Below are positions 8,552-31,443 of a stretch of 35,015 nucleotides of DNA, piece by piece; the first letter of the stretch is position 1, and each line of letters starts with the position of its first letter. Source of the DNA: a virus. The notes under the pieces were generated by a model, which was not told where the DNA came from, did not search any database, and saw nothing but the letters and a program-made list of their open reading frames with translations. Location: UHGV virus genome UHGV-0006788; one strand, written 5' to 3'. A program made the position numbers and the translations under genes.

Positions 8552-8850
8552 GTCCTGATTTGTACTCACTCATTTTCCGCCTGACAATTTACATAGCCCA
8601 AATGCTATCAAATCTGACAGTCTGCTTTGAGCGAGAAACGGACGTTATAGATAGTGTGTTAAGGTTTTCTCTTTAATTGCAATGTCATATCCTCAACGAC
8701 CAAGTAGTGACATTTTTCGTTATTATATGGTATTGTGTTAGAATTAATTTATTGATGCGAAATCATTCAAAGCTTCATTGGTACTTATATTTAACTTATA
8801 ATCTTAATTAAAGAATTTCTTATTTTTAGATATTTTTATGCAAATACTTA

Positions 8851-9603
8851 ATGAAAGGAGGCATAAATTTGGATACTAACAGTCCATTAATTGAAGTCGA
8901 GCAGAACACTTCAGACATATATATTCCGTTGCAAGCCTGGTTCGAGGGGAGAAAATTCCTTTCACACAGATTTTCGGGCCAAAACTGTAGTGATAATCCA
9001 TCAAGTGATTGGGAGGCTTGGTTATCAATACAGGAATGCTGTCCTCTCCATCAGGTCAATAGTCTTAACTGGGTCGGACTGCATGAAGCTAGGAAAAATA
9101 CAGATTCATTCTTGGGGAATGTGAAGAGTGAATTTAATGGAAAGCTTCCCATTTTTATTCATGAAAAGGAGAGGGTGATAATCGAAAAAAAAATCGGCAT
9201 TCCTCCCAAACCCTCATTACCAATCTATTTAATATCATGCTCTGATATGGATGATACCAATGAACACATTGTTTATGTCGGAAAAACCGTTAACTCCAAA
9301 AGGTTTATTGGCGGTCACTCGGCTGCCTTAAAGTTGCTAGATCCCAAATATAATAATATGAAAAAGAGGATATATAGAGCCACCCCATGGTTTTATGATG
9401 GAAAAGACTATATTTCACTGGATTGGATTAGTCCGACATCATTAGCTATAGAATTACTTGACTTTATAGAGTCTCATCTTATTTACAATCTCAAGCCGGA
9501 ACTCAACACATCGAAGAAAAAAAATGAAGATACACGTTATTCTTTTTATCTTCACATTCAGAACTTTTTATCAACAGGCTTTCTTAATGATGAGTTTATT
9601 TAA
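8851..9603 (+). CDS. Cargo protein with a putative GIY-YIG-type nuclease domain
   Basis: 250-aa ORF in a visibly AT-rich island. The segment PIYLISCSDMDDTNEHIVYVGKTVNSKRFIGGH has the GIY...YIG spacing and the following Arg/His seen in GIY-YIG nucleases such as I-TevI and UvrC. The AAAGGAGG Shine-Dalgarno sits inside the annotated first codons, so the true start may be the in-frame TTG at 8869. Confidence 0.6.
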   Translation: MKGGINLDTNSPLIEVEQNTSDIYIPLQAWFEGRKFLSHRFSGQNCSDNPSSDWEAWLSIQECCPLHQVNSLNWVGLHEARKNTDSFLGNVKSEFNGKLPIFIHEKERVIIEKKIGIPPKPSLPIYLISCSDMDDTNEHIVYVGKTVNSKRFIGGHSAALKLLDPKYNNMKKRIYRATPWFYDGKDYISLDWISPTSLAIELLDFIESHLIYNLKPELNTSKKKNEDTRYSFYLHIQNFLSTGFLNDEFI

Positions 9604-9639
9604 TATCATTACTTATTAACATAGTAGAGATTAAACTAC

Positions 9640-9704
9640 GTCCGCTCCTGGCAAGCAGCGGACATTGCTGGCTGAGTTGAGGGTCCGCTGTGAGCGAGGA
9701 GCGG
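9640..9704. repeat. Pair of palindromic hairpin elements with arms GTCCGCT / AGCGGAC
   Basis: gtccgct-cctggcaagc-agcggac (9640..9663) and tccgct-gtgagcgagg-agcgga (9684..9704), between the two convergent cargo genes. A related palindrome occurs at 11786..11809. Confidence 0.5.
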
Positions 9705-9978
9705 AAGTTCAAAATTTTTCATAACGACTGATGAGAACAACACTAATTTTCGAACTTACTGGTACAAAAAATTTCCATAATCTTATAAAAAGTGGGGGAG
9801 TCAGTATGGTTCAATATTTGAAATACTACTTGTTTATGTTGAGAAAATTTTAAGCTTGACCTGGTTACCAGATTACAGCCGATCAACACCTAGACATCGA
9901 AACTTAGAGGTACCTCTGCTTTCAGGCATACTTAGAGGTCTATGTCTAAACCACCCGCTATGCAGGTGGTTGATTTAC

Positions 9979-11514
9979 CTAATTCGGCCTTGCTTGAATA
10001 GCAGACTCTATAGCTGCTCGGAATTCCGGGGCATCAGTTCTTAATCGATAATCATCAAGGGTATTGAATATTTCTAGAAGTTCTCTACGATAATGCGGCG
10101 GTGCTGAATTACCTTCGCCTCTAGTGGTGAAAATTAATAATGAGTCAGCGACGTCTTTTAATTTTTTATTCCTTTTCAACCTAATATAACAAGATACAAC
10201 TATATCAAGAATATGCTTTCTAGATTTCAAGGTGAGTTTATTATTAGGCATAACCAACTGCAGCATAGCACCAAGTAATTTGGTAGCCTCTTTTGAAATA
10301 TAATGAAGATCGAAATTATCTATTTCTTTATTTTCTTGAGGAATCTCCTTTTCATCTATCCATTCGCATTGTTCTGCCCAATCTGTAGCGACGCTAAATA
10401 AATGACAGAGAAGGAAGTGAAAAGGTGTTTCCCATTCACCACTATATTCATCTGATTGCCTATTCATATTCTTTATAATTTTCCTTGCGAAATATGAATA
10501 GTAATGCAACCATAAATGATCCTGAAGACCCTGGTGAATACCTTCATGAACCATAATTTCAAACAGCGTGACACCTGAGTAAATAGGACATTTATATTTT
10601 GAAGCATCGTAATAGGAACCTAAAGACTTATTAAGTGCAGCAATAATTTTTTCATCTTCATCTAACCTCCAGTAGAGATAGTCACCGATATCACGGTATA
10701 TTGCTAAATCAGCTGCAAACTTAGCATTGGAAAAGAAAAAATGTAATATACGGTTGTTTTTTGGAATCAATAAACGATGTCCTCGACTAACGTTAAGATT
10801 ATTTTTAAGCTCAACATATAGACGACTGTTAGGTGAACCAAGTAATGCACTGATAAAATTAGAAGTAAAGTCAGAACGAACTATTGGCTCGATCTTGATT
10901 AACTCAAGGCAGAGGGATGGGTGCGCAAGTGCAAAGTGATTGGTAAGTTCAGGTGATGAGACAATATTTAACAATGCTTCATGTGCATGTTCAGCAGCTG
11001 TCTCGCGATTAGAGATGCGGAGATTGTTAGCTATCTTATCACAAAGTCGATTCTTCACAGGTCTATCAATTATTGATATTAATTTTTCTAGTTGAGGTGC
11101 CAACAATTGTGCCAGATCGTCGTATCGTTTAGTAAGGTGCAAATTTTCCACTAACTCTAGAAATATCCCTGTTCTTCCAATTGAGAGTTTAGGGTTTTTT
11201 AAGCGAAATAAAATGTAAATAGCAACTGCGAGTGATATCAGGTATACGGCACTTGAACTATCTAATCCCCATTTCCAGGGGCCAAAGCTAAAATATAAGT
11301 CTAGTGATTTTAAAGCCGGTGCAAACACCAAATAATTGCTTAGTAAGAATGCAAACCCAACAATTACCCAATCCCACCACGCTAGGCAGAACCTTAAACG
11401 TAGTCGAGCGTTTGGCGTAATAAGGGCCCATACAGCAGCAATAACGCCCAATATGGTAAGTAGACTTGATGTATCAATTTTGGTTGGCGGTGTCATAATT
11501 TCTCTTGTAATCAT
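9979..11514 (-). CDS. Cargo protein, membrane-anchored (hydrophobic N-terminal segments), function unknown
   Basis: 511-aa ORF in the AT-rich island; the first ~110 residues hold several hydrophobic stretches (LLTILGVIAAVWALI, WDWVIVGFAFLLSNYLVFAPAL, AVYLISLAVAIYILF), followed by a ~400-aa soluble region with no motif I recognise. Confidence 0.65.
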   Translation of the reverse strand: MITREIMTPPTKIDTSSLLTILGVIAAVWALITPNARLRLRFCLAWWDWVIVGFAFLLSNYLVFAPALKSLDLYFSFGPWKWGLDSSSAVYLISLAVAIYILFRLKNPKLSIGRTGIFLELVENLHLTKRYDDLAQLLAPQLEKLISIIDRPVKNRLCDKIANNLRISNRETAAEHAHEALLNIVSSPELTNHFALAHPSLCLELIKIEPIVRSDFTSNFISALLGSPNSRLYVELKNNLNVSRGHRLLIPKNNRILHFFFSNAKFAADLAIYRDIGDYLYWRLDEDEKIIAALNKSLGSYYDASKYKCPIYSGVTLFEIMVHEGIHQGLQDHLWLHYYSYFARKIIKNMNRQSDEYSGEWETPFHFLLCHLFSVATDWAEQCEWIDEKEIPQENKEIDNFDLHYISKEATKLLGAMLQLVMPNNKLTLKSRKHILDIVVSCYIRLKRNKKLKDVADSLLIFTTRGEGNSAPPHYRRELLEIFNTLDDYRLRTDAPEFRAAIESAIQARPN

Positions 11515-11785
11515 TGTTTGATGTACATCGGAATGGTTTCAAATGATAAGGCTCTGTGTATGATAAATCAGAACGTTATGCACGTTTAAGAATACCCTCA
11601 AAATGGCACATTTTAATCTAAAAATGGCATTAAATGGACACTACTTGTCCACACAAGTTTTTTTCAGTCGGCTTTTCCCGACTAACGTTTGGGGTGTCCT
11701 ATTGAAACTACGCTCCTTATAAAAGCAATACTGTAGCTGTATGTTTATCAAAGGGGTTGTGCTAACCAAATTACTGAAGCCTAAG

Positions 11786-12401: not shown

Positions 12402-14492
12402 TTACACCTGTGCGACGTTATACCATGTGCCATTGATGTATTTTTGTATCGGTCTGAATACTGCGGGGTCATCACCATCGACTTCACCGACAATACCAAG
12501 CCCTGTAATTACGTGCCCTGCTTTCTCATACATAACCCCTTTCTGCATAGTCTGAACAACACGAGTGCCCAGGCGAATATCCCGGACATAGCGAGAATCT
12601 GATTCAGCTTTGGTGTATGCACCAACATCTCCCGCTGATGGTTTTCGTGTTGTGGTATAGAAATCAGACCAGCCAGATTCAAAACCATAACCATCACGGG
12701 CTGACCTGTAAGATATACCGCCATTTTTATAATTCACACGAAACTGTACAGCCGGGCAGCTACCAGCATTTATATTAAAGTGAAGAATTAATGCAGATGC
12801 TCCCCCAATCAGAGCGTTGTATGCGCCACTGTCCCAATTCCATCCAACGGCTGTATCACCATTAACCGTATTACCTGTCTGCCGAAGTGCAAATGCACCG
12901 ACATTTCTGGCATTAAGGGTAATATCTCCAGAACCATCAAAGGCAACACCTGCTATTTTCCTCGGTGTTTCGAGTTTTGAGGCTGTTGCAGCATTTCCTG
13001 AAAGGCTGGAAATAAATGGATGTGAACAGTAATAACCACGTCCATTTTTAAAATCCAGAATAGCCTGTACGTTCGTGCTTTCTGTAGCGGGATTAGTTGC
13101 CCCCCACTTATATGTCGTCTGACCGACGACATAATACTCTGTCGGAACAATAACCGTTAGCCCTTCCTCTGCAAGAATTTGTACTGGGAAAGCTCTGGCT
13201 TCAACATAAAAAACACTACATACATCATCATCTTTCAGGCTTGTAACAATGGAATGGATTGAACGCTCATTAGTCTGATACGTCCAGAAATAACCTGCCG
13301 CATATGAACCACGATCGGTCCAGCCTCCGGGCATAACCATGCCATTAAACTCGCAGTTATTCATTACATAATCGCCGTTATAACAACCAGTTGAAATAAC
13401 GACGCGGGATGCCATTTCTCCTGAAAGGCTGGCAGCACGGCGAAAGATAACGGGATACCACTTCCCGGCAACGACATTTGCAGGGGCTGCAAACGAATAC
13501 TTTCGCATTCCCTTTTTCTTATCCACTTCACCTTTGCTGTAAACATTAATGTTACTCAGGAAGCGTCCTTTATCAGGAATATCCGCACCGTTCTGATCTT
13601 TCTGAAGACGTTTTTCAGCATTGTCATAGGCAGACTTCACCGCTTTTGGTGTTGCAGCCAGCGTTTCAGAATCACTGTTGGTGGCGCTACTGAGCTGGAC
13701 AAGACCTTTTCGCGCTGTGGTGGCATCCTGTGCAGTGTATTTCCCGTTAGCAAGGTCATACGCTGTCTTAACCGCCTTTGGCGTTGCCGCAAGCGTTTCA
13801 GAATCGCTGTTGGTGGCGCTACTGAGCTGGACAAGGCCTTTTCGCGCTGTGGTGGCGTCCTGTGCAGTGTATTTCCCGTTAGCAAGGTCATATGCTGCTT
13901 TTACCGCTTTTGGTGTTGCGGCGAGTGTTTCAGACGTGCTGTTGGTCGCACTGCTTAACTGAGTAAAACCTTTGGCGGTCAGCGAGGCGTCCGGGTGACG
14001 TCGTGACTGTTCATGTTCTGCAATTTTGTCATCAACGTAATCCTGCGTTGCCATCACCGTTGTGGTGTCAATGGTCAGCGCCACTGAGGCCACACTGCTG
14101 ACGATGATGACCATGCGGCAGGTCTGCGAACGCCCTGAGCCTTCGGCAAGAGCTGGCTTATAACTTTCAGCCATGTTCGCCACGGCAATTAACGTTCCAG
14201 CATCATCGTACAGGCCAAGCTCACGCATCCAGAAACCCCCCACCTCCGGCGGAATAACCAGCTCTGCGATAATATAATTACTGTTTCGTTTGTCCTGGCT
14301 GATTTTGTTCAGCGCATGTCGCCAGACTTCGTGGATAAGCCCGGTCTGTCCGGCATCCGGGACTGGCAATTTACCACCGCCATCCCCGACGGCCATCGTG
14401 GTAATGTTGACCTTCCGCCCTCCCGGCGCGGTTGCCGCTGCCAGCTTTGCTGCACCAGCAGTGGTGATAACGGTTCTGAATTTTGTGCTCAT
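12402..14492 (-). CDS. H: Tail fiber protein (P2 gpH family) with internal tandem repeats
   Basis: 696-aa ORF; the N-terminal region is as expected for gpH; residues ~174-293 contain about 2.7 tandem copies of a 44-aa unit (KG..QLSSATNS.SETLAATPKAVK.AYDLANGKYTAQDATTAR); C-terminal receptor-binding part follows. Confidence 0.85.
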   Translation of the reverse strand: MSTKFRTVITTAGAAKLAAATAPGGRKVNITTMAVGDGGGKLPVPDAGQTGLIHEVWRHALNKISQDKRNSNYIIAELVIPPEVGGFWMRELGLYDDAGTLIAVANMAESYKPALAEGSGRSQTCRMVIIVSSVASVALTIDTTTVMATQDYVDDKIAEHEQSRRHPDASLTAKGFTQLSSATNSTSETLAATPKAVKAAYDLANGKYTAQDATTARKGLVQLSSATNSDSETLAATPKAVKTAYDLANGKYTAQDATTARKGLVQLSSATNSDSETLAATPKAVKSAYDNAEKRLQKDQNGADIPDKGRFLSNINVYSKGEVDKKKGMRKYSFAAPANVVAGKWYPVIFRRAASLSGEMASRVVISTGCYNGDYVMNNCEFNGMVMPGGWTDRGSYAAGYFWTYQTNERSIHSIVTSLKDDDVCSVFYVEARAFPVQILAEEGLTVIVPTEYYVVGQTTYKWGATNPATESTNVQAILDFKNGRGYYCSHPFISSLSGNAATASKLETPRKIAGVAFDGSGDITLNARNVGAFALRQTGNTVNGDTAVGWNWDSGAYNALIGGASALILHFNINAGSCPAVQFRVNYKNGGISYRSARDGYGFESGWSDFYTTTRKPSAGDVGAYTKAESDSRYVRDIRLGTRVVQTMQKGVMYEKAGHVITGLGIVGEVDGDDPAVFRPIQKYINGTWYNVAQV
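13614..13973. repeat. Tandem 132-bp repeats (about 2.7 copies) inside the tail fiber gene H
   Basis: Near-identical DNA units visible on direct reading (for example cgctgttggtggcgctactgagctggacaag near 13676 and 13808); they generate the repeat-driven spurious ORFs on both strands. Confidence 0.8.
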
Positions 14493-16918: not shown

Positions 16919-16984
16919 AACGGGAAGGATGCCGCCGGGTCATACCGGCGGCAATGTGACGATGAGGTGTCAGGAATGGCACAA

Positions 16985-23358: not shown

Positions 23359-25131
23359 ATGACCATCACCACAGACACCACTCTTTTACACGACCCGCGT
23401 CGTCAGGCGGCGCTGCTGTACTGGCAGGGGTTTTCCGTGCCGCAGATTGCCGCCATGTTGCAGATGAAACGCCCGACGGTGCAGAGCTGGAAACAGCGCG
23501 ACGGCTGGGACAGCGTTGCTCCCATCAGCCGTGTCGAAATGAGTCTGGAAGCGCGGCTGACCCAGCTCATCATAAAACCGCAGAAAACAGGCGGTGACTT
23601 CAAGGAAATTGACCTGCTCGGACGCCAGATTGAACGACTGGCACGGGTAAACCGCTACAACCAGACCGGCAACGAGGCAGACCTTAATCCGAACATCGCT
23701 AACCGCAACAAAGGCGGGCGGCGCAAACCGAAAAAGAATTTTTTCAGCGACGAGGCTATCGAAAAGCTGGAGCAGATTTTCTTTGAGCAGTCTTTCGAAT
23801 ATCAGTTGCACTGGTATCGCGCCGGGCTTGAGCACCGCATCCGCGATATCCTGAAATCCCGCCAGATTGGCGCGACGTTTTATTTTTCCCGCGAGGCGCT
23901 GCTGCGCGCCCTGAAAACCGGTCATAACCAGATTTTTCTGTCGGCCAGTAAAACGCAGGCGTATGTGTTCCGCGAATACATCATCGCCTTTGCCCGGCTG
24001 GTTGACGTTGACCTGACCGGTGACCCGATTGTCCTGGGCAATAACGGCGCAAAACTGATTTTTCTCGGCACCAACTCCAACACCGCACAGAGCCATAACG
24101 GCGACCTGTACGTCGACGAGATTTTCTGGATCCCGAATTTTCAGGTACTGCGTAAGGTGGCATCAGGTATGGCCTCACAGAGTCACCTGCGCTCGACCTA
24201 TTTCTCCACCCCGTCCACGCTGGCGCACGACGCCTACCCGTTCTGGTCGGGTGAACTGTTCAACCGGGGACGCGCCAGCGCCGCCGAACGCGTGGAAATC
24301 GACGTCAGTCATAACGCCCTTGCCGGTGGGCTTCTCTGTGCGGACGGCCAGTGGCGACAGATTGTCACCATTGAGGACGCCCTGAAAGGCGGCTGCACGC
24401 TGTTCGACATTGAGCAGCTCAAACGCGAAAACAGCGCCGACGATTTTAAAAACCTGTTCATGTGTGAATTTGTTGACGACAAGGCATCGGTGTTCCCGTT
24501 CGAGGAGCTGCAACGCTGCATGGTCGACACGCTGGAAGAATGGGAAGACTATGCGCCGTTTGCCGCCAATCCGTTCGGCTCCCGCCCGGTATGGATTGGT
24601 TACGACCCGTCACACCGTGGCGACAGCGCCGGATGCGTGGTACTGGCACCGCCGGTGGTGGCCGGTGGCAAATTCAGAATACTTGAGCGTCACCAGTGGA
24701 AAGGCATGGACTTTGCCACCCAGGCGGAATCCATCCGCAAACTCACCGAAAAATACAACGTCGAATACATCGGGATTGATGCCACCGGCCTCGGTGTCGG
24801 CGTGTTCCAGCTCGTGCGCTCGTTCTATCCCGCCGCGCGCGATATCCGCTACACGCCGGAAATGAAAACTGCAATGGTGCTCAAGGCAAAAGACGTTATC
24901 CGCCGTGGCTGTCTGGAATATGACGTCAGCGCCACCGACATCACCAGCTCGTTTATGGCTATCCGCAAGACCATGACCAGCAGCGGACGCAGCGCCACCT
25001 ATGAGGCCAGCCGCAGCGAGGAAGCCAGCCACGCCGACCTCGCCTGGGCGACCATGCACGCCCTGTTAAATGAGCCACTCACCGCCGGTATCAGCACCCC
25101 GCTGACATCCACCATTCTGGAGTTTTACTGA
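23359..25131 (+). CDS. P: Terminase large (ATPase) subunit (P2 gpP family)
   Basis: 590-aa product starting MTITTDTTLLHDPRRQAALLYWQGFSV; the track ORF begins 10 codons upstream. The stop overlaps the Q start (TGATG). Confidence 0.9.
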   Translation: MTITTDTTLLHDPRRQAALLYWQGFSVPQIAAMLQMKRPTVQSWKQRDGWDSVAPISRVEMSLEARLTQLIIKPQKTGGDFKEIDLLGRQIERLARVNRYNQTGNEADLNPNIANRNKGGRRKPKKNFFSDEAIEKLEQIFFEQSFEYQLHWYRAGLEHRIRDILKSRQIGATFYFSREALLRALKTGHNQIFLSASKTQAYVFREYIIAFARLVDVDLTGDPIVLGNNGAKLIFLGTNSNTAQSHNGDLYVDEIFWIPNFQVLRKVASGMASQSHLRSTYFSTPSTLAHDAYPFWSGELFNRGRASAAERVEIDVSHNALAGGLLCADGQWRQIVTIEDALKGGCTLFDIEQLKRENSADDFKNLFMCEFVDDKASVFPFEELQRCMVDTLEEWEDYAPFAANPFGSRPVWIGYDPSHRGDSAGCVVLAPPVVAGGKFRILERHQWKGMDFATQAESIRKLTEKYNVEYIGIDATGLGVGVFQLVRSFYPAARDIRYTPEMKTAMVLKAKDVIRRGCLEYDVSATDITSSFMAIRKTMTSSGRSATYEASRSEEASHADLAWATMHALLNEPLTAGISTPLTSTILEFY

Positions 25132-26159
25132 TGAGCAAGAAAAAAGGGAAAACACCGCAACCTGCGGCAAAAACAATGACCGCCAGCGCCCCGAAAATGG
25201 AGGCATTCACCTTTGGTGAGCCGGTGCCGGTACTCGACCGCCGTGACATTCTGGATTACGTCGAGTGCATCAGTAACGGCAGATGGTATGAGCCGCCGGT
25301 CAGCTTTACCGGTCTGGCAAAAAGCCTGCGTGCTGCCGTACATCACAGCTCACCGATTTACGTCAAACGTAATATTCTGGCTTCAACGTTTATTCCGCAC
25401 CCGTGGCTTTCCCAGCAGGATTTCAGCCGCTTTGTGCTGGATTTTCTGGTGTTCGGTAATGCGTTTCTGGAAAAGCGCTACAGCACCACCGGTAAGGTCA
25501 TCAGACTGGAAACCTCACCGGCAAAATATACCCGCCGTGGCGTGGAGGAGGATGTTTACTGGTGGGTGCCGTCCTTCAACGAGCCGACACCTTTCGCGCC
25601 CGGCTCCGTGTTTCACCTGCTGGAGCCGGATATTAATCAGGAGCTGTACGGTCTGCCGGAATATCTCAGCGCCCTTAACTCTGCCTGGCTGAATGAGTCG
25701 GCCACGCTGTTCCGCCGCAAGTATTACGAAAACGGCGCACATGCCGGATACATCATGTACGTCACCGATGCCGTGCAGGATCGCAACGATATCGAAATGC
25801 TTCGCGAAAACATGGTGAAGTCGAAAGGCCGCAACAACTTTAAAAATCTGTTTCTCTATGCCCCGCAGGGGAAAGCCGACGGCATTAAAATTATCCCGCT
25901 CAGTGAAGTGGCAACGAAGGACGATTTTTTTAATATCAAAAAAGCCAGCGCCGCTGACCTGCTGGACGCGCACCGCATCCCCTTTCAGTTGATGGGCGGC
26001 AAGCAGGAGAACGTCGGGTCGCTGGGTGATATTGAGAAAGTGGCAAAGGTCTTTGTCCGCAATGAGCTTATCCCGCTACAGGACAGGATCCGCGAGATAA
26101 ACGGCTGGCTCGGTCAGGAGGTCATCCGCTTTAAAGATTACAGTCTAGAATCTAATTAA
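25131..26159 (+). CDS. Q: Portal protein (P2 gpQ family)
   Basis: 342-aa ORF (P2 gpQ is about 344 aa), translationally coupled to P and reading toward cos. Confidence 0.85.
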   Translation: MSKKKGKTPQPAAKTMTASAPKMEAFTFGEPVPVLDRRDILDYVECISNGRWYEPPVSFTGLAKSLRAAVHHSSPIYVKRNILASTFIPHPWLSQQDFSRFVLDFLVFGNAFLEKRYSTTGKVIRLETSPAKYTRRGVEEDVYWWVPSFNEPTPFAPGSVFHLLEPDINQELYGLPEYLSALNSAWLNESATLFRRKYYENGAHAGYIMYVTDAVQDRNDIEMLRENMVKSKGRNNFKNLFLYAPQGKADGIKIIPLSEVATKDDFFNIKKASAADLLDAHRIPFQLMGGKQENVGSLGDIEKVAKVFVRNELIPLQDRIREINGWLGQEVIRFKDYSLESN

Positions 26160-26254
26160 GTACCCTTAGCGCCGTCTCCAGACGGCGTGATTCTATGCAA
26201 TCCAGGCAAGATTAACCCCCAACACCTTCAATTACTATATGGTTTAATAGAAAT

Positions 26255-26944
26255 TCAATCTTTAACTTCAATATATGAAGAAGAAAACCATATAGATTTT
26301 TTCCCATTTATGTATTTAGAAACAGGCGAGCCATCTTCGTTCATTGCCTCAGCACTAAATGTTACATAATACATTCCTTTTTCTTTTGTCGAAACAAGAT
26401 AGTTCAAGCGTCTTTCGGCAGAGATAGGAACGGATATATCATATAAAGGTATATTTTTAGCTTTTCCTTGCGAGCTACTTTCTTCATTAAGAACAGCCAA
26501 CTCCTCATAATAATTTGGATAAAAAACTTCCGTAGCGACTTGCTTTGCACCGGCCGATAAAACACGACTAACAGCAAGGGACTTGTTATTAAGCTTCACA
26601 TAAATTCGCTCATTACTGTTATTCCTAATAGTCACAATAGGCTTTATATAAAACACATCATCGATTTTAACAACATTAACGTCAACATTAAAAAATGTCG
26701 ATTCTGTATTTCTAATTCTATTTCTTAACTCTATAAGATCAGCTTCTGCCTTATCCCTTTGGTGCAAAACATCAAAAGTATATCCTCCCCACACAAGTGT
26801 CAAAACAGCGCACAATGACATCACGACGTTATTAAACTGATCGTGTGTTCTGTAAATATCTTTGAATTTTAAAATTAATAATAGACATGCTATGAATAGC
26901 ATGCCTATTATCAGCCAGTGTTCTTTTACAAATTCAAAGTTCAT
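26255..26944 (-). CDS. Cargo protein, predicted small membrane protein (candidate effector), function unknown
   Basis: 229-aa ORF in a visibly AT-rich island; hydrophobic N-terminal segments (WLIIGMLFIACLLLIL and VVMSLCAVLTLVWGGYTF) followed by a soluble domain; its start codon lies 2 nt after the stop of the upstream 366-aa gene. Confidence 0.65.
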   Translation of the reverse strand: MNFEFVKEHWLIIGMLFIACLLLILKFKDIYRTHDQFNNVVMSLCAVLTLVWGGYTFDVLHQRDKAEADLIELRNRIRNTESTFFNVDVNVVKIDDVFYIKPIVTIRNNSNERIYVKLNNKSLAVSRVLSAGAKQVATEVFYPNYYEELAVLNEESSSQGKAKNIPLYDISVPISAERRLNYLVSTKEKGMYYVTFSAEAMNEDGSPVSKYINGKKSIWFSSSYIEVKD

Positions 26945-26946
26945 AG

Positions 26947-28047
26947 TTAGTCACTCGCATGCCTCGCATCACCATCTTCAGGGAAATTGATCCCCTGTCC
27001 GATCTCACGGTTCGTTGGACGAGCAGAAACAAAGCCTCTATTTTGTCTTTTTAAACGCAACTCTAGAACTTGAGAAACTCTATCAAAGTTTAATCCATCC
27101 ATTGCAACCTCTTTTTTCCCTTCAATATGAGATCGAAGTTCCTCACTTATACGATTATCAACCGTTGAAGCGAAGGCTACATCATGATTAAAAATGGCCC
27201 CCATAATTAACATAAACGCAATTCCGGCCTTTCTATTATTTGTTTTAAATTGTAGCCAAACATCCCCCGGAGACATCAACATTTGTTGAGCAGTCAAGGA
27301 TAACTCTCCATTATTAGAAAGTCTTTCCATCTCAAACTGAACAACTTCGTTTGTATACTCGCCATCAAACTCTTCGCCAATTAATAGCGCAAGTACCTGC
27401 ACTCTATCGACCAGCTCAGCCAGCTGCTTAAGAGTATGATGCCGAATGGCTTCTGCTTGCTCGACTCTTAAGCTAGTACAGAAAATATTATCCGTTATAA
27501 AGAATGACATTAACCAATGCAGTACTTCTTCTGACTTCCCGCCCAAAGAGAATACGGTCTGGTATGCAGTAAACGATTTCTGAAGAGCTAATGGAATCTC
27601 TCGTCTGCGAACTGGCTCTCCCCATGTGACTCTACGTCTTACATGAAACCCTTCATTATTACCTAAACATTCACGCTCAAAATACGCGGAAGATGCAATA
27701 ACTCCAGGAACAACCATATCACCTGACAAAGTGAAAACAACATCACCGACCTGCATATCTATGAGGAAATTTTCAATTTGGGTATGAATATTTCTTGAAC
27801 CAATAGTATCTAACCCATCAACCTTTTGATTAATATTTTCATGGTTAATTTCATCATTAAAGTCAATTTGATCTGGACTTAACCTATCCAAGTGAGCAGT
27901 AGCAACCATATTGCATTCAAGGAAGTCTGCAAAATATCTATACTTAATCCCAGGTCTAACGACCCAACACTTTACATTTAAATCAACATGTTGTACTGAA
28001 ATAGCTCTTTGTGATGAAGTTCCAAGCATAGCTGATCCATAATTCAA
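26947..28047 (-). CDS. Cargo protein, function unknown (first gene of a two-gene operon between Q and cos)
   Basis: 366-aa ORF in the AT-rich island with no motif I recognise; weak or no Shine-Dalgarno before the first ATG, and an alternative start at Met7 is possible. Confidence 0.65.
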   Translation of the reverse strand: MNYGSAMLGTSSQRAISVQHVDLNVKCWVVRPGIKYRYFADFLECNMVATAHLDRLSPDQIDFNDEINHENINQKVDGLDTIGSRNIHTQIENFLIDMQVGDVVFTLSGDMVVPGVIASSAYFERECLGNNEGFHVRRRVTWGEPVRRREIPLALQKSFTAYQTVFSLGGKSEEVLHWLMSFFITDNIFCTSLRVEQAEAIRHHTLKQLAELVDRVQVLALLIGEEFDGEYTNEVVQFEMERLSNNGELSLTAQQMLMSPGDVWLQFKTNNRKAGIAFMLIMGAIFNHDVAFASTVDNRISEELRSHIEGKKEVAMDGLNFDRVSQVLELRLKRQNRGFVSARPTNREIGQGINFPEDGDARHASD

Positions 28048-28253
28048 AAAATTTTACGCATTTTACATATTTTTATTTAAGACTCTAGAGAGTTAGGAAT
28101 GATGAATCGCTTCAACAGATTATTTTTTGTGCAGATAGTGTGCTTAAACCAACTCATCGTAACGAAAGCACTCGCCTGAATCGTAAAGATAACATCTCAT
28201 GACTCGATTCATAGGCTAATAGTATTATGTAATGGTCGTTAATGGAGCGCGCA

Positions 28254-28272
28254 GTGCTTTCCCCGCCTCGCC
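28254..28272 (-). other. cos site (19-nt cohesive-end sequence of P2-like phages)
   Basis: gtgctttccccgcctcgcc is the reverse complement of GGCGAGGCGGGGAAAGCAC, the P2/P4 cohesive end as I recall it; the following bases on the minus strand (TGCGCGC...) also fit the P2 left end. Confidence 0.75.
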
Positions 28273-28750
28273 CGCCCGCTTCACGGGGCGGTTTTAATGC
28301 AGTTGCATAGATACTATGGATCCGCACCAGTCCTGACCGCACGCAGCCTGAACGGACATCCCCAACGCATGCAAAAACATTCACTTGTTGCATGCATAGC
28401 TTTTTAAGTACGCCATACCGCAACTGTACATTTTTAAGCAATTGGCAACTTTAAAAAATTTACATTGCTTTCAAGACCTTATCATCCGTAGTCTCTGTTT
28501 TTTACTTTGAGCTACATCAATAAAATCTCAAACATGTTTAATGCAAAGCCCTTGTTACACAACATAGAATGTATGTCTAGAAACAACGACATACTATATG
28601 TTGTGTTTTTCCGGCTCTCTGTTCGGTGATATGCCAAATCACTTTGCGTTTAAACAGAGCATTATTTCAGGGCAAGACTTCGCTCAAAAGTCATTCCACC
28701 TAAGAAGCGCATATACCGGTGGAAGTTGCCCTCTACTTACAGGAGGCAAT

Positions 28751-28864
28751 ATGAAGAAATGCTATTACTGCATTCTCGTTCTGGCCCTCTTTGGCTATCC
28801 AAACGGTAGTCCGAGTGGTTTGTCAGTAAACGTCAGTAATATCAATGTCAGCATTATGCTTTAA
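28751..28864 (+). CDS. Possible small hydrophobic peptide (37 aa), speculative
   Basis: ATG preceded by a strong AGGAGG Shine-Dalgarno at the right spacing; product MKKCYYCILVLALFGYPNGSPSGLSVNVSNINVSIML; followed directly by a strong intrinsic terminator. Confidence 0.3.
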   Translation: MKKCYYCILVLALFGYPNGSPSGLSVNVSNINVSIML

Positions 28865-28873
28865 TATGCTTGA

Positions 28874-28907
28874 AACAAAAAAACCACCTGCCAGGGTGGT
28901 TTTTTTG
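28874..28907. terminator. Bidirectional intrinsic terminator
   Basis: aaaaaaaccacctgccagggtggttttttt: GC-containing stem flanked by an A-run and a T-run, so it can terminate on either strand (small ORF on plus, A operon on minus). Confidence 0.7.
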
Positions 28908-29166
28908 CGCCCATCATCAATACGATGAAAGACTGACAAGACTTCGCTCAAGACGAATTATGCGTCGACATAAGGTTCCCCGCAATGATTTTATTAGACT
29001 AAATGGATGGCCTTTTATGACCCGGATCAAACGGCTGTCCTTACCTACATGCTAGTCACTCAATAGCATTTAGCCTTCTAATTCAGCATGCTATTGACCT
29101 TCTGCTGCCCCATAACTGCTCCGCATAAGCCATTCAATGCCATATCAAATCACGTTGTGTTTTTAC

Positions 29167-31443
29167 TCAAATGGGTAACGAGAACCCCGGCCACTCATCA
29201 GCAACCGGATACGTGAATTTTTTCCCGTCATAATTTACGGTCGCGCCACGCGCCAGCGCCTCAAGCTCCCATCGTTGCGGCCTGATACCGTTCTGAGCGA
29301 GGTCAACGCGGATACGGGTAATTTGCAATCGTTCAGACCTGGTCAGTCTGGCAGATGGTGCAATTTCATGCGGTTTTAACGGGATTCCGTTTCTTTGCTG
29401 ACGGTTTGGTGTTCTCAGGTCGTGTTTTAATGCGCCCCTGAGCGCCCTCACGACCTCCGTGTCATTCCATTCGATAACACCGTCATCAACCAGATTAAGC
29501 ACTGCTGCGGCGTGTTCAGAAGGTGTGGGAGCCGGTAACGAAGTATCACCACCGGTGAGCTTTCCACAGTTATTGACAGGACTCCGAGGCGCGGCGATGC
29601 CGCTTTTTAAAGTCAAAGGCTCAACGACCGGAACTTTCGGCACAATGCGCCAGTCCGTCGTTCTGGTGATATGAATATGACGCGCGCCGAGATGCGGCGC
29701 GTAAATGCCGACCACTCTCTCGACTTCTTCCTCGTACTCGTTAACTTCATCCGACGGGCTACGGGCGACTCTGACAGTCTGACAATCGCGCGGGACATTT
29801 GCCCCACCCTGCGCGCTGATATACAACGCAAAATCACCACTGTCTGCGGCGGCGCGTGCAGCCTCGACGCGCTCGTCAAACTCATCAGCAATGCTGACGC
29901 CGCGCGGCAATTTGCGTAGTTCACGGTAAGCCCCCATTGTCGGCAGGCCAACCGTTTTAAATTGCGGGATGCGCCACGTTGACGCCCATGCGGTAACAGC
30001 CGCTGCAGTGTCTTTCAGCGGCCTGCCGGTGTCGTTATCGAGCTGACCATCCAGTGCATAGCCGTCGATGTTTTTTGAAATGTATTTCGCGATATATCCC
30101 GCAGCACCGCCCCGGTTAAGGTGTTTTGCCTGAAAACGGTTTCGCGCGGCTCCTCTTTCGTCGCCATCCTCTTTGAGCGCATAGCGACGCATGATTTCGA
30201 TAATCTGGTTACGCTGGCGTGGATTACAAAAAAGCATCATATGCCAGTGCGGCGTTCCGTCGTGGTGTGGCTCGACGACACGCAAACCGTAGACCTGTAA
30301 ATCATTATCCTTGAATGCCGTGCGCATCAGGCTCCAGATACGGCAGAGATAACGCTGCGCATCCTTTGGATTAAATGCCTCATCATTCCAGCCGTGATTA
30401 AGCTGGACGGTTTTATTTTCGCCTTTTCCGACCTGACGTGTCGGGTGATACTTTGACGGCGCGGTAAGCGTGATAAACATCCCCACATCACCCTCTGCGG
30501 CGGCGTAACGCTCAATACCGGCAATGGTGTTCATCAGCTCCATCCGGCGAATTTCAGGATTAGAAATACTGCCCATCACCTTACTGATAAGGTCGATGCG
30601 CTCGCCGGTTTCCCTGTTTTCAAGGTCACACGATTTAAGAAATTCCAGATTTGCCTGGCGGCGCGCACGCACATCACGAATGGCATGTTTACTGGCATAA
30701 GGTGAACGGTCTTTATTGACCTCCCCGACAGCAATCAGTAACGCCTCATGCCAGCGCATACGCTGGCCTTTAAGCTGACTAATCCACCACTCATCGTTAA
30801 ACAGGCGGGCAATGGCAGAATATGCCTGCCTCGTGGTCATCTGCCCTTTACGGTATTTTCTCCAGTAAAGCGGGGAAATATTGAAAGCACGTGCAGCGCC
30901 AGCAACATGACCATACAGGTGAGCCTGCGCCTCATCCGTAAACAGCGATTCTTTTTCGCCATGCGCATCCACCCAGGCATCGCAGAGTTCCTCATACATC
31001 ATGAAAAGCTGCGATGAGATTCGGGCGGCAAACTTTTTCAGCTCCTTGTCATTCATCCCCGGCAGGCGCGCATACTGGTCGCGCTCTGCCAGAAACAGCA
31101 ACGACGCGTCGGTGTTCATTTCATGGCGCTGATTCACGCGCTCAATGCGCGGCCATAAACGACGCTGAAAAGTGGATGTGAGGAAATAAAACCCGTGCAC
31201 CGGGCTTTTATTGCGCCGGATGTAGTCATAGCGTGAAGTAAACAGCGAGCGCAAAAAGTAAGGCAGGCGGTTAATCGTGGATAAAACACCTTGCACCTGA
31301 CGCATCTCGTCACGTGTAAGGGGTCTTTCGCGCCCGACGGCCTCGCGTGGCGCGTTCCATGCATAAGCACCGGTAAACGTCTTACCGGTGCCTGCGGCAA
31401 ATGCTGACGGAGGGACAAAACGCCCGGAGGCTTTAACGGCCAT
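29167..31443 (-). CDS. A: Replication initiation protein A (rolling-circle nickase, P2 gpA family)
   Basis: Product MAVKASGRFVPPSAFAAGTGK... of about 758 aa; P2 gpA is about 761 aa. The track ORF is extended 14 codons upstream; the exact start is uncertain. Confidence 0.85.
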   Translation of the reverse strand: MAVKASGRFVPPSAFAAGTGKTFTGAYAWNAPREAVGRERPLTRDEMRQVQGVLSTINRLPYFLRSLFTSRYDYIRRNKSPVHGFYFLTSTFQRRLWPRIERVNQRHEMNTDASLLFLAERDQYARLPGMNDKELKKFAARISSQLFMMYEELCDAWVDAHGEKESLFTDEAQAHLYGHVAGAARAFNISPLYWRKYRKGQMTTRQAYSAIARLFNDEWWISQLKGQRMRWHEALLIAVGEVNKDRSPYASKHAIRDVRARRQANLEFLKSCDLENRETGERIDLISKVMGSISNPEIRRMELMNTIAGIERYAAAEGDVGMFITLTAPSKYHPTRQVGKGENKTVQLNHGWNDEAFNPKDAQRYLCRIWSLMRTAFKDNDLQVYGLRVVEPHHDGTPHWHMMLFCNPRQRNQIIEIMRRYALKEDGDERGAARNRFQAKHLNRGGAAGYIAKYISKNIDGYALDGQLDNDTGRPLKDTAAAVTAWASTWRIPQFKTVGLPTMGAYRELRKLPRGVSIADEFDERVEAARAAADSGDFALYISAQGGANVPRDCQTVRVARSPSDEVNEYEEEVERVVGIYAPHLGARHIHITRTTDWRIVPKVPVVEPLTLKSGIAAPRSPVNNCGKLTGGDTSLPAPTPSEHAAAVLNLVDDGVIEWNDTEVVRALRGALKHDLRTPNRQQRNGIPLKPHEIAPSARLTRSERLQITRIRVDLAQNGIRPQRWELEALARGATVNYDGKKFTYPVADEWPGFSLPI

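Follow-up and report, generated by a model that had tools for sequence, protein, structure and literature searches.

In many type IV restriction enzymes, modification is sensed by domains of the PUA superfamily (PMC7897488, PMC6765204, PMC7641849), and PUA-like sensor domains are also found fused to calcineurin-like, HEPN, TIR, HNH and McrB effectors (10.64898/2026.01.15.699771). In the Metis and PUA-Cal-HAD systems, PUA-like domains sense m6dAMP that arises from phage-driven genome degradation (10.1101/2025.11.05.686725; 10.64898/2026.01.15.699771). Type II Metis kills through a membrane protein, and this membrane protein itself binds ligand (10.1101/2025.11.05.686725). A two-gene cassette, referred to here as A-B, is located between the portal gene Q and the cohesive-end site cos (26160-28253) in the UHGV virus genome UHGV-0006788, a stretch of 35,015 nucleotides (nt) that was analyzed as a whole and will be referred to as the window. 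Protein A is predicted to contain a PUA-like domain, and protein B is a small predicted membrane protein. Kiwa, which is also present in P2 hotspots, consists of the membrane protein KwaA and the soluble, nucleic-acid-directed protein KwaB.

The gpA-gpQ interval, which flanks cos in P2-like prophages, is a published defense hotspot and reservoir (PMC9122126; PMC13586616), as a first-pass annotation of the window had supposed, and 1,650 gene arrangements were counted in it by Rousset et al. 2022 (PMC9122126). The pair WP_024234794 and WP_024234795 is present in Table S5 of that study as 'hypothetical + hypothetical', and is not in its table of tested systems (PMC9122126). A literature search finds no mention of DUF8426, the Pfam family of protein A (see below), or of three protein accessions in the main text of any paper. 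The first-pass annotation had described the locus as a candidate undescribed system. It is true that no named system matches the pair, but the pair was already listed in Table S5 and A belongs to DUF8426. We regard A-B as one of many uncharacterized occupants of the hotspot, and as a rare, conserved candidate system.

Both genes of the cassette are on the minus strand and are present in the list of open reading frames (ORFs). Gene A (26947-28047) had been described as encoding a protein of 366 amino acids (aa). The ORF from TTG 28047 exists, but the RefSeq entry and the N termini of homologues make a start at ATG 28029 more likely, for a protein of 360 aa. Gene B (26255-26944) encodes 229 aa. 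The junction between the two genes reads TAA-CT-ATG, with a spacer of 2 nt, and the operon is transcribed away from cos, towards Q. The dN/dS values are 0.075-0.165 for both genes in comparisons with the Citrobacter, Enterobacter and second Escherichia coli alleles (with dS near saturation), and they indicate that both genes are under purifying selection. Spurious or chance ORFs are ruled out by these values and by the conservation of the two proteins.

The homologues of A form 47 clusters, with 39-99% identity, from Enterobacterales and Pseudomonas. A profile search finds 46 clusters for B, and the sizes of their contigs mirror those of the A clusters. We collected 52 loci with an A homologue, corresponding to about 15 distinct alleles or contexts. 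In all 49 loci where the contig continues, B is located directly downstream of A, and the spacer varies from -4 to +7 nt among 11 divergent loci. In a Shewanella pair, with 28% identity for A and 36% for B, the genes overlap by 4 nt. The earlier proposal that the two genes, being 2 nt apart, are coupled as a unit is borne out by this pairing, and the comparisons indicate that A-B is a real, co-inherited and tightly coupled two-gene unit.

The window is a nearly complete P2-like prophage with 97-98% identity to phage P2 in its backbone. The P2 cohesive end, GGCGAGGCGGGGAAAGCAC, is present as the reverse complement at 28254-28272, where the window strand reads GTGCTTTCCCCGCCTCGCC, and the interval 26160-28253 extends exactly from the Q stop (26159) to this 19-nt cohesive end. 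P2 has cos at 1-19 and the Q stop at 187, with the terminator tQ between them; the interval is 167 nt rather than the approximately 100 bp of the first-pass annotation. A near-identical sister prophage in E. coli 90-1 has an empty site. It matches the window with 100% identity across cos and the segment from cos to the replication gene A of the phage, and with about 98% identity across Q, and it holds only 185 bp in place of the cassette, namely the last 18 nt of Q and a P2-like spacer up to 8 nt before cos. Homology to both P2 and E. coli 90-1 ends at 26141 and restarts at 28246, only 8 nt from cos. The event is therefore a replacement, and 185 bp, among them the terminator tQ and the final 18 nt of Q, were exchanged for 2,104 bp (26142-28245). 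The earlier description of 2.1 kb of AT-rich DNA between Q and cos is correct with respect to composition, the GC content being 0.36-0.40 over 26001-28500 as compared to 0.54-0.59 in the flanking P and Q genes, but the DNA is not a plain insertion.

The cassette is rare. Of 5426 complete E. coli genomes, 7 have it (8 if either allele is counted), and it is absent from 50,697 deposited phage records (DNA and protein search) and from 72,556 plasmid records (protein search). With its site empty in P2 and in the E. coli 90-1 prophage, the cassette is cargo and not part of the phage core. It occupies the Q-cos slot (gene order repA...cos-A-B-Q) in the window, in six other E. coli genomes, in a Citrobacter freundii prophage and in several IMG/VR contigs, so that the co-occurrence of the pair at this position in other prophages, raised as a possibility earlier, is established. 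In Enterobacter ludwigii and related contigs, the pair is found in the repA-cos slot (gene order repA-A-B-cos-(other cargo)-Q). The locus belongs to the variable gpA-gpQ hotspot both by its position and by its content, which varies among near-identical prophages. In E. ludwigii CP195344.1, cos (about 10385-10445) is diverged and has A-B on its repA side, and the Q-cos slot contains a different ORF of 357 aa (10544-11617), with no Pfam or PADLOC match.

Other genes are located across cos from the cassette in two sister prophages, a type VI retron reverse transcriptase together with a helix-turn-helix protein in E. coli Ec-U9-2 and a PDC-S06/PrrC-like ATPase in Citrobacter. The pair is also found at sites unrelated to P2. 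These include a satellite-like element that carries RepA/D5 primase, PerC and DUF2213 genes and has the pair at its far end, an integrase island of Pectobacterium that also contains CcdAB, TacAT and AbiE, positions beside icd in Serratia and Providencia, and a position between a type II-A retron and a HEC-07 candidate in Pseudomonas grimontii. The cassette thus moves among classic defense-type sites. In E. coli ET881 (NZ_CP100890.1, 1-5700), the structural genes between G and Q have been lost through a deletion, which joins the Z/fun island to a 27-codon remnant of Q and A-B. Both cargo islands and the replication gene A are kept, an arrangement that looks like domestication of the cargo.

Protein A contains an N-terminal domain (N-domain, residues 20-175 approximately), a family-specific C-terminal domain (C-domain, residues 180-345 approximately) and an acidic tail with the sequence FPEDGD. 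In the predicted structure, the N-terminal half has a PUA/EVE/YTH-like fold, and its best fold match, with moderate similarity scores, is the EVE-HNH restriction enzyme VcaM4I. The next matches are YTH m6A readers, the EVE proteins PH1033 and Atu2648, THYN1 bound to 5mC DNA, and the N-domain of Thermococcus gammatolerans McrB. At this moderate level of similarity, the model indicates that the N-domain is a PUA-like β-barrel. The Pfam EVE, YTH and ASCH profiles match neither gene A nor any of 24 homologues and 18 distant relatives.

The first-pass annotation recognized no motif in this protein. In the local libraries, gene A indeed has no Pfam, NCBIfam or PDB sequence match; phrog_10226, of unknown function, matches it, and the other PHROGs, Pfam and NCBIfam results are sub-threshold noise. 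On the other hand, the N-domain is predicted to be PUA-like, and gene A is in the Pfam family DUF8426 (PF28530), an indirect assignment based on precomputed matches for P0001 (99% identical) and most homologues, and on the RefSeq name of WP_024234794, 'DUF8426 domain-containing protein'. Moreover, residues 26-212 match the PADLOC candidate PDC-S02 (best E value 4.4e-12, profile positions 3-185 of 324). Ten distant relatives of A match PDC-S02 hidden Markov models with likewise partial coverage, and the E values range from 4e-12 to 1e-20 overall. In the relatives of A, there is also a match between the N-domain region and an internal part of a type II restriction-enzyme model.

The conservation of protein A was compared in 30 members with 20-32% identity. 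In the N-domain, residues Trp28, Arg31, His52, Phe94, Asp102, Gly115 and Trp142 are invariant, and Asp54, Gln90, Ser119 and Arg137 are conserved in at least 27 of the 30. This pattern of conservation would be compatible with a ligand pocket, such as an aromatic cage for a modified base. In the C-domain, Ser192, Ser259 and Gly261 are invariant, and His177 is conserved in 28 of the 30 members. Position 217 is Glu in 28 of the 30 sequences and Gln in the protein of the window. No known relative of the C-domain was found. An exhaustive profile search gives 858 clusters at 50% identity, 232 of them with E values below 1e-10. Nearly all these clusters are 330-390 aa in length, and for many the match spans nearly the full profile, so that the two-domain architecture of A defines a sizeable, unnamed family. 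Three single-protein scans of viral contigs for this wider family gave no match. One distant relative of A, P0244 from Pseudomonas siliginis, has the UniRef name 'ApeA N-terminal domain-containing protein'. A link between this N-domain and the ligand-binding N-domain of ApeA is not supported, as it is based on this name only and the PADLOC and Pfam models for ApeA and HEPN miss both P0244 and gene A.

Protein B had been described as having N-terminal transmembrane (TM) segments, and two hydrophobic helices are predicted there. In the AlphaFold2 (AF2) model (pLDDT 85), a TM helix (residues 10-25) leads into a short loop that has a positive charge and contains the conserved motif (W)..H..FNN. 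The second hydrophobic helix (residues 39-57 approximately) continues as a stalk to residue 79, and residues 83-227 form an Ig-like β-sandwich in the model. A fold search with B finds only generic sandwiches of the Ig/FnIII type, and there is no PADLOC match of any kind. According to charge counts over 25 homologues, interpreted with the positive-inside heuristic, the loop would be cytoplasmic and both the stalk and the sandwich external in nearly all of them, and the β-sandwich is probably periplasmic. The layout that had been proposed for the pair, a soluble sensor-like protein with a small membrane protein, agrees with the predicted PUA-like N-domain of A and with the TM helices and sandwich of B.

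No named defense system had been recognized in the pair, and this holds in PADLOC, where partial matches to PDC-S02 were obtained for A only. PDC-S02, a single-gene candidate, is similar to A in its N-domain and in its size (300-350 aa). However, only profile positions from about 3-160 to 3-185 of 299-346 are aligned, leaving out the C-terminal half, and PDC-S02 is a single gene, whereas A is paired with B in 49 of 49 informative loci. The partial match and the single-gene definition rule out membership. Type IV restriction enzymes such as the EVE-HNH enzyme VcaM4I would share with A the reader fold of the PUA superfamily, as judged from the model. These enzymes have a nuclease (HNH, PD-(D/E)XK and others), whereas A has none and its partner is a membrane protein. 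Pfam, NCBIfam, PADLOC, a profile search of the PDB and a fold search gave no nuclease family for either protein, and a type IV restriction endonuclease is therefore ruled out.

Metis and PUA-Cal-HAD have a PUA-like sensor of infection within a two-gene E. coli system, and are similar in this to the cassette with its predicted PUA-like domain. However, Metis combines the HAD phosphatase MisB with either MisA, a PUA domain joined to a calcineurin-like phosphoesterase, or MisC, which has three TM helices, and the phosphoesterase, the phosphatase and MisC are all missing from A-B. The papers on Metis and PUA-Cal-HAD describe neither a C-domain of the A type nor a sandwich of the B type. Membership in Metis is ruled out by the absence of a HAD or PF00149 match in A and B, by the presence of only two genes in the operon, and by the two TM helices and sandwich of B. 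Kiwa also has two genes, for an inner-membrane protein and a cytoplasmic, nucleic-acid-directed protein. In comparison, KwaA has four TM helices while B has two and a sandwich, and KwaB has a DUF4868 domain while A does not. There is no PADLOC or Pfam match to Kiwa, which rules out membership, and ApeA is ruled out as neither a HEPN RNase nor an ApeA N-terminal domain is matched in PADLOC or Pfam.

The P2 genes tin and old exclude other phages (PMC9122126). Like A-B, they are non-essential lysogenic-conversion genes next to cos and are transcribed away from it. They have no homology to the cassette, however, and are located on the gene-A side of cos. The first-pass annotation had noted the absence of tin and old from this cargo region. 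They are indeed absent, as P2 Tin, Old, Orf91 and Fun(Z) have no match in the window at E ≤ 0.01 by tblastn, which also rules out the identity of the cassette with Tin, Old or Fun(Z); the region that they occupy in P2, however, is on the other side of cos. Considering all these comparisons, we propose by analogy that A-B would act most like the PUA-sensor defense systems, with a new output module.

Because of the genomic context and the strict pairing, defense or exclusion is the best-supported function for the cassette. The context and the predicted fold suggest that A-B probably functions in defense against, or exclusion of, phages or other mobile elements. For the mechanism, the cassette would be mobile, non-essential cargo of a P2-like prophage, presumably expressed from the lysogen. 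Protein A would be cytoplasmic, and its PUA-like (EVE/YTH-type) N-domain would read a modified nucleobase, either in modified phage DNA or RNA or in modified nucleotides freed when the phage degrades the host chromosome. The family-specific C-domain would couple A to B in the inner membrane, and ligand-bound A would switch B to a membrane-damaging state, leading to abortive infection. A pathway from A through B to the membrane is proposed because there is no enzymatic effector and the membrane protein is the sole partner. We infer the identity of the ligand, the contact between A and B, the direction of signaling and the damage to the membrane, and the full mechanism, with A sensing a modified base and B damaging the membrane, has in our estimate a little less than an even chance of being correct.

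Several observations weigh against this mechanism. A periplasmic sandwich is awkward for a simple model in which A triggers B, as it leaves only the short conserved loop in the cytoplasm for contact. In PADLOC, B has no similarity to known pore-forming or depolarizing effectors. A representative of PDC-S02, which shares only the N-domain with A, gave no protection against T4, T5 and T7 in one heterologous study. A promoter scan found no convincing promoter for the operon, the sigma-70-like matches being weak and their count not above the shuffled expectation. Finally, the proposals on the function of the pair are drawn from sequence, models and genomic context.

Signaling from a soluble sensor to a membrane killer is one of two plausible logics for such a pair. 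The reverse one, which is the main rival but which we consider unlikely, would be comparable to Kiwa or to superinfection exclusion. The sandwich of B would sense or block the insertion of the phage tail, or the entry of DNA, at the inner membrane, with A as the effector; A, tethered to the loop of B, would bind the incoming (possibly modified) phage nucleic acid through its PUA-like domain and block its use, with no cell death. This would agree with the positive-inside analysis, where the loop between TM1 and TM2 is cytoplasmic and the sandwich is outside in nearly all 25 members, although the topology of B is a prediction of this heuristic. It would also agree with the structured extramembrane domain of 145 aa in B, which is not that of a minimal pore-former, and with the closest structural relatives of A, which bind polymeric DNA or RNA. 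Systems with a membrane sensor and a soluble effector exist, Kiwa reportedly being one of them, but the PADLOC models for Kiwa match neither protein, and A has no nuclease or other recognizable effector domain. A further suggestion, which we make tentatively and consider doubtful, is that A-B corresponds to type IV restriction without the nuclease, with a PUA-like reader of modified nucleobases (in hypermodified phage DNA, or in methylated nucleotides that degradation of the host genome sets free), a C-domain of a kind not seen before and a periplasm-facing membrane protein with an Ig fold. In one version of this suggestion, a new kind of membrane effector would be triggered by the reader; in the other, the reader would be held by the membrane protein at the site of DNA entry.

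The remaining explanations do not involve the sensing or exclusion of phages. The tight coupling of the genes, with the small membrane protein encoded second, would also be expected for an addiction module of the toxin-antitoxin kind, which would stabilize mobile elements with B as the membrane toxin and A as the antidote. The Pectobacterium locus lies among CcdAB and TacAT modules, and the pair has been kept in the E. coli ET881 prophage that is stripped of structural genes. However, A would be an unusual antitoxin, since it is large (360 aa), has a conserved domain resembling a ligand pocket and is under constraint equal to that of B. In addition, a Pfam scan finds no DNA-binding autoregulator domain in the pair. 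The distinction from abortive infection is partly semantic, and we consider an addiction module improbable. A non-defense conversion function appears equally improbable, with B having an envelope or stress function regulated by A, or with the PUA-like protein in housekeeping linked to RNA modification. It is true that PUA/EVE/YTH domains are also found in tRNA and rRNA biology (PMC7641849), that Ig-like periplasmic domains are common in envelope proteins, and that both proteins are without functional annotation. However, the pair has a very patchy distribution (either allele is found in 8 of the 5426 complete E. coli genomes) and is always on mobile or variable DNA, repeatedly beside retrons, PDC-S06, AbiE and toxin-antitoxin modules. 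A role as a packaging or morphogenesis accessory of the phage is suggested by the position between the portal gene and cos and by nothing else. This role is effectively refuted, as the pair is missing from P2 and from the E. coli 90-1 sister prophage, is located on the opposite side of cos in other P2-like phages, is found outside phages (beside icd, in integrative islands and in a retron island), and is present in 0 of 50,697 deposited phage genomes.

The order of the prophage in the window is the attachment site (near 1696), ogr-D...FI, G/H...V, S...O, P, Q, cos, the replication gene A, and int at the end of the window. Five segments are without P2 homology, 1-1695 (the host flank), 8647-11781, 12600-13634, 26142-28253 and 28302-29179, the fourth of which was narrowed to 26142-28245 by blastn against the P2 junction and the empty-site prophage. 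Gene Q (25131-26159, plus strand, from the ORF list) has 97% DNA identity to P2 up to 26141. Its last 18 nt (26142-26159) lie within the replaced segment, and the C terminus of its product therefore differs from that in P2. Q and the A-B operon converge on an intergenic spacer (26160-26254), which has a GC-rich hairpin (26170-26187 approximately) at the position of tQ in the P2 annotation. The terminator scan did not score this hairpin as an intrinsic terminator, and the promoter and terminator scan as a whole gave nothing above the shuffled expectation. The region upstream of the operon, between cos and gene A of the cassette (28030-28245, minus strand), is part of the replaced segment and is presumed to contain the promoter.

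A 56-bp core of cos (28246-28301), which contains the cohesive end, is 100% identical to P2 by blastn against the P2 junction. Only this core is retained, since replacement has also affected the other side of cos. There, the segment between cos and the replication gene A (28302-29179), at the position of orf91, tin and old in P2, is AT-rich and without a long ORF, and is neighboring context rather than part of the cassette. Of 5426 complete E. coli genomes, 191 have this 878-bp segment and 7 have the cassette, and the two sides of cos therefore vary independently. The segment includes an ORF for a hydrophobic protein of 37 aa (28751-28864, plus strand), MKKCYYCILVLALFG..., with a GGAGG Shine-Dalgarno sequence, which could be a gene for a small membrane peptide or resemble a type I toxin gene. 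It is followed by a strong hairpin with T-runs at about 28877-28907. For RNA genes in 26000-29300, there is only sub-threshold Rfam noise, at a hairpin near 28875.

A second AT-rich island, with about 36% GC, is found in the Z/fun slot between the tail sheath gene FI and the tail-fiber assembly gene G (8647-11781). It contains two unannotated ORFs, 8851-9603 (plus strand, 250 aa) and 9979-11514 (minus strand, 511 aa, with a hydrophobic N-terminal half), neither of which has a Pfam or PADLOC match, and it is another candidate cargo system. The non-essential P2 orf30, between S and V, is absent, with about 64 nt in its place (16919-16982). The central to C-terminal part of the tail-fiber gene H (12600-13634) has no DNA homology to P2 and is probably a host-range variant.

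If A-B is active, it would represent a new defense family in which a modified-base reader of the PUA/EVE/YTH type is the sensor. The output would be an uncharacterized domain together with a membrane protein having an Ig-like domain, rather than a nuclease or a nucleotide-depleting enzyme, which would widen the known routes from the detection of modified bases to immunity. Either version of the nuclease-free suggestion, if correct, would establish a new family of defense systems. About 860 clusters at 50% identity share the two-domain architecture of A. A PUA-like reader with a membrane partner raises the interest of the locus, and the many other occupants of the hotspot temper it. In P2-like phages, the short interval from Q to cos is itself a slot for cargo, where the foreign DNA of the cassette reaches within 8 nt of cos. 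The presence of the same cassette on both sides of cos, in satellites and in chromosomal islands bears on how defense genes shuttle among phages, satellites and their hosts.

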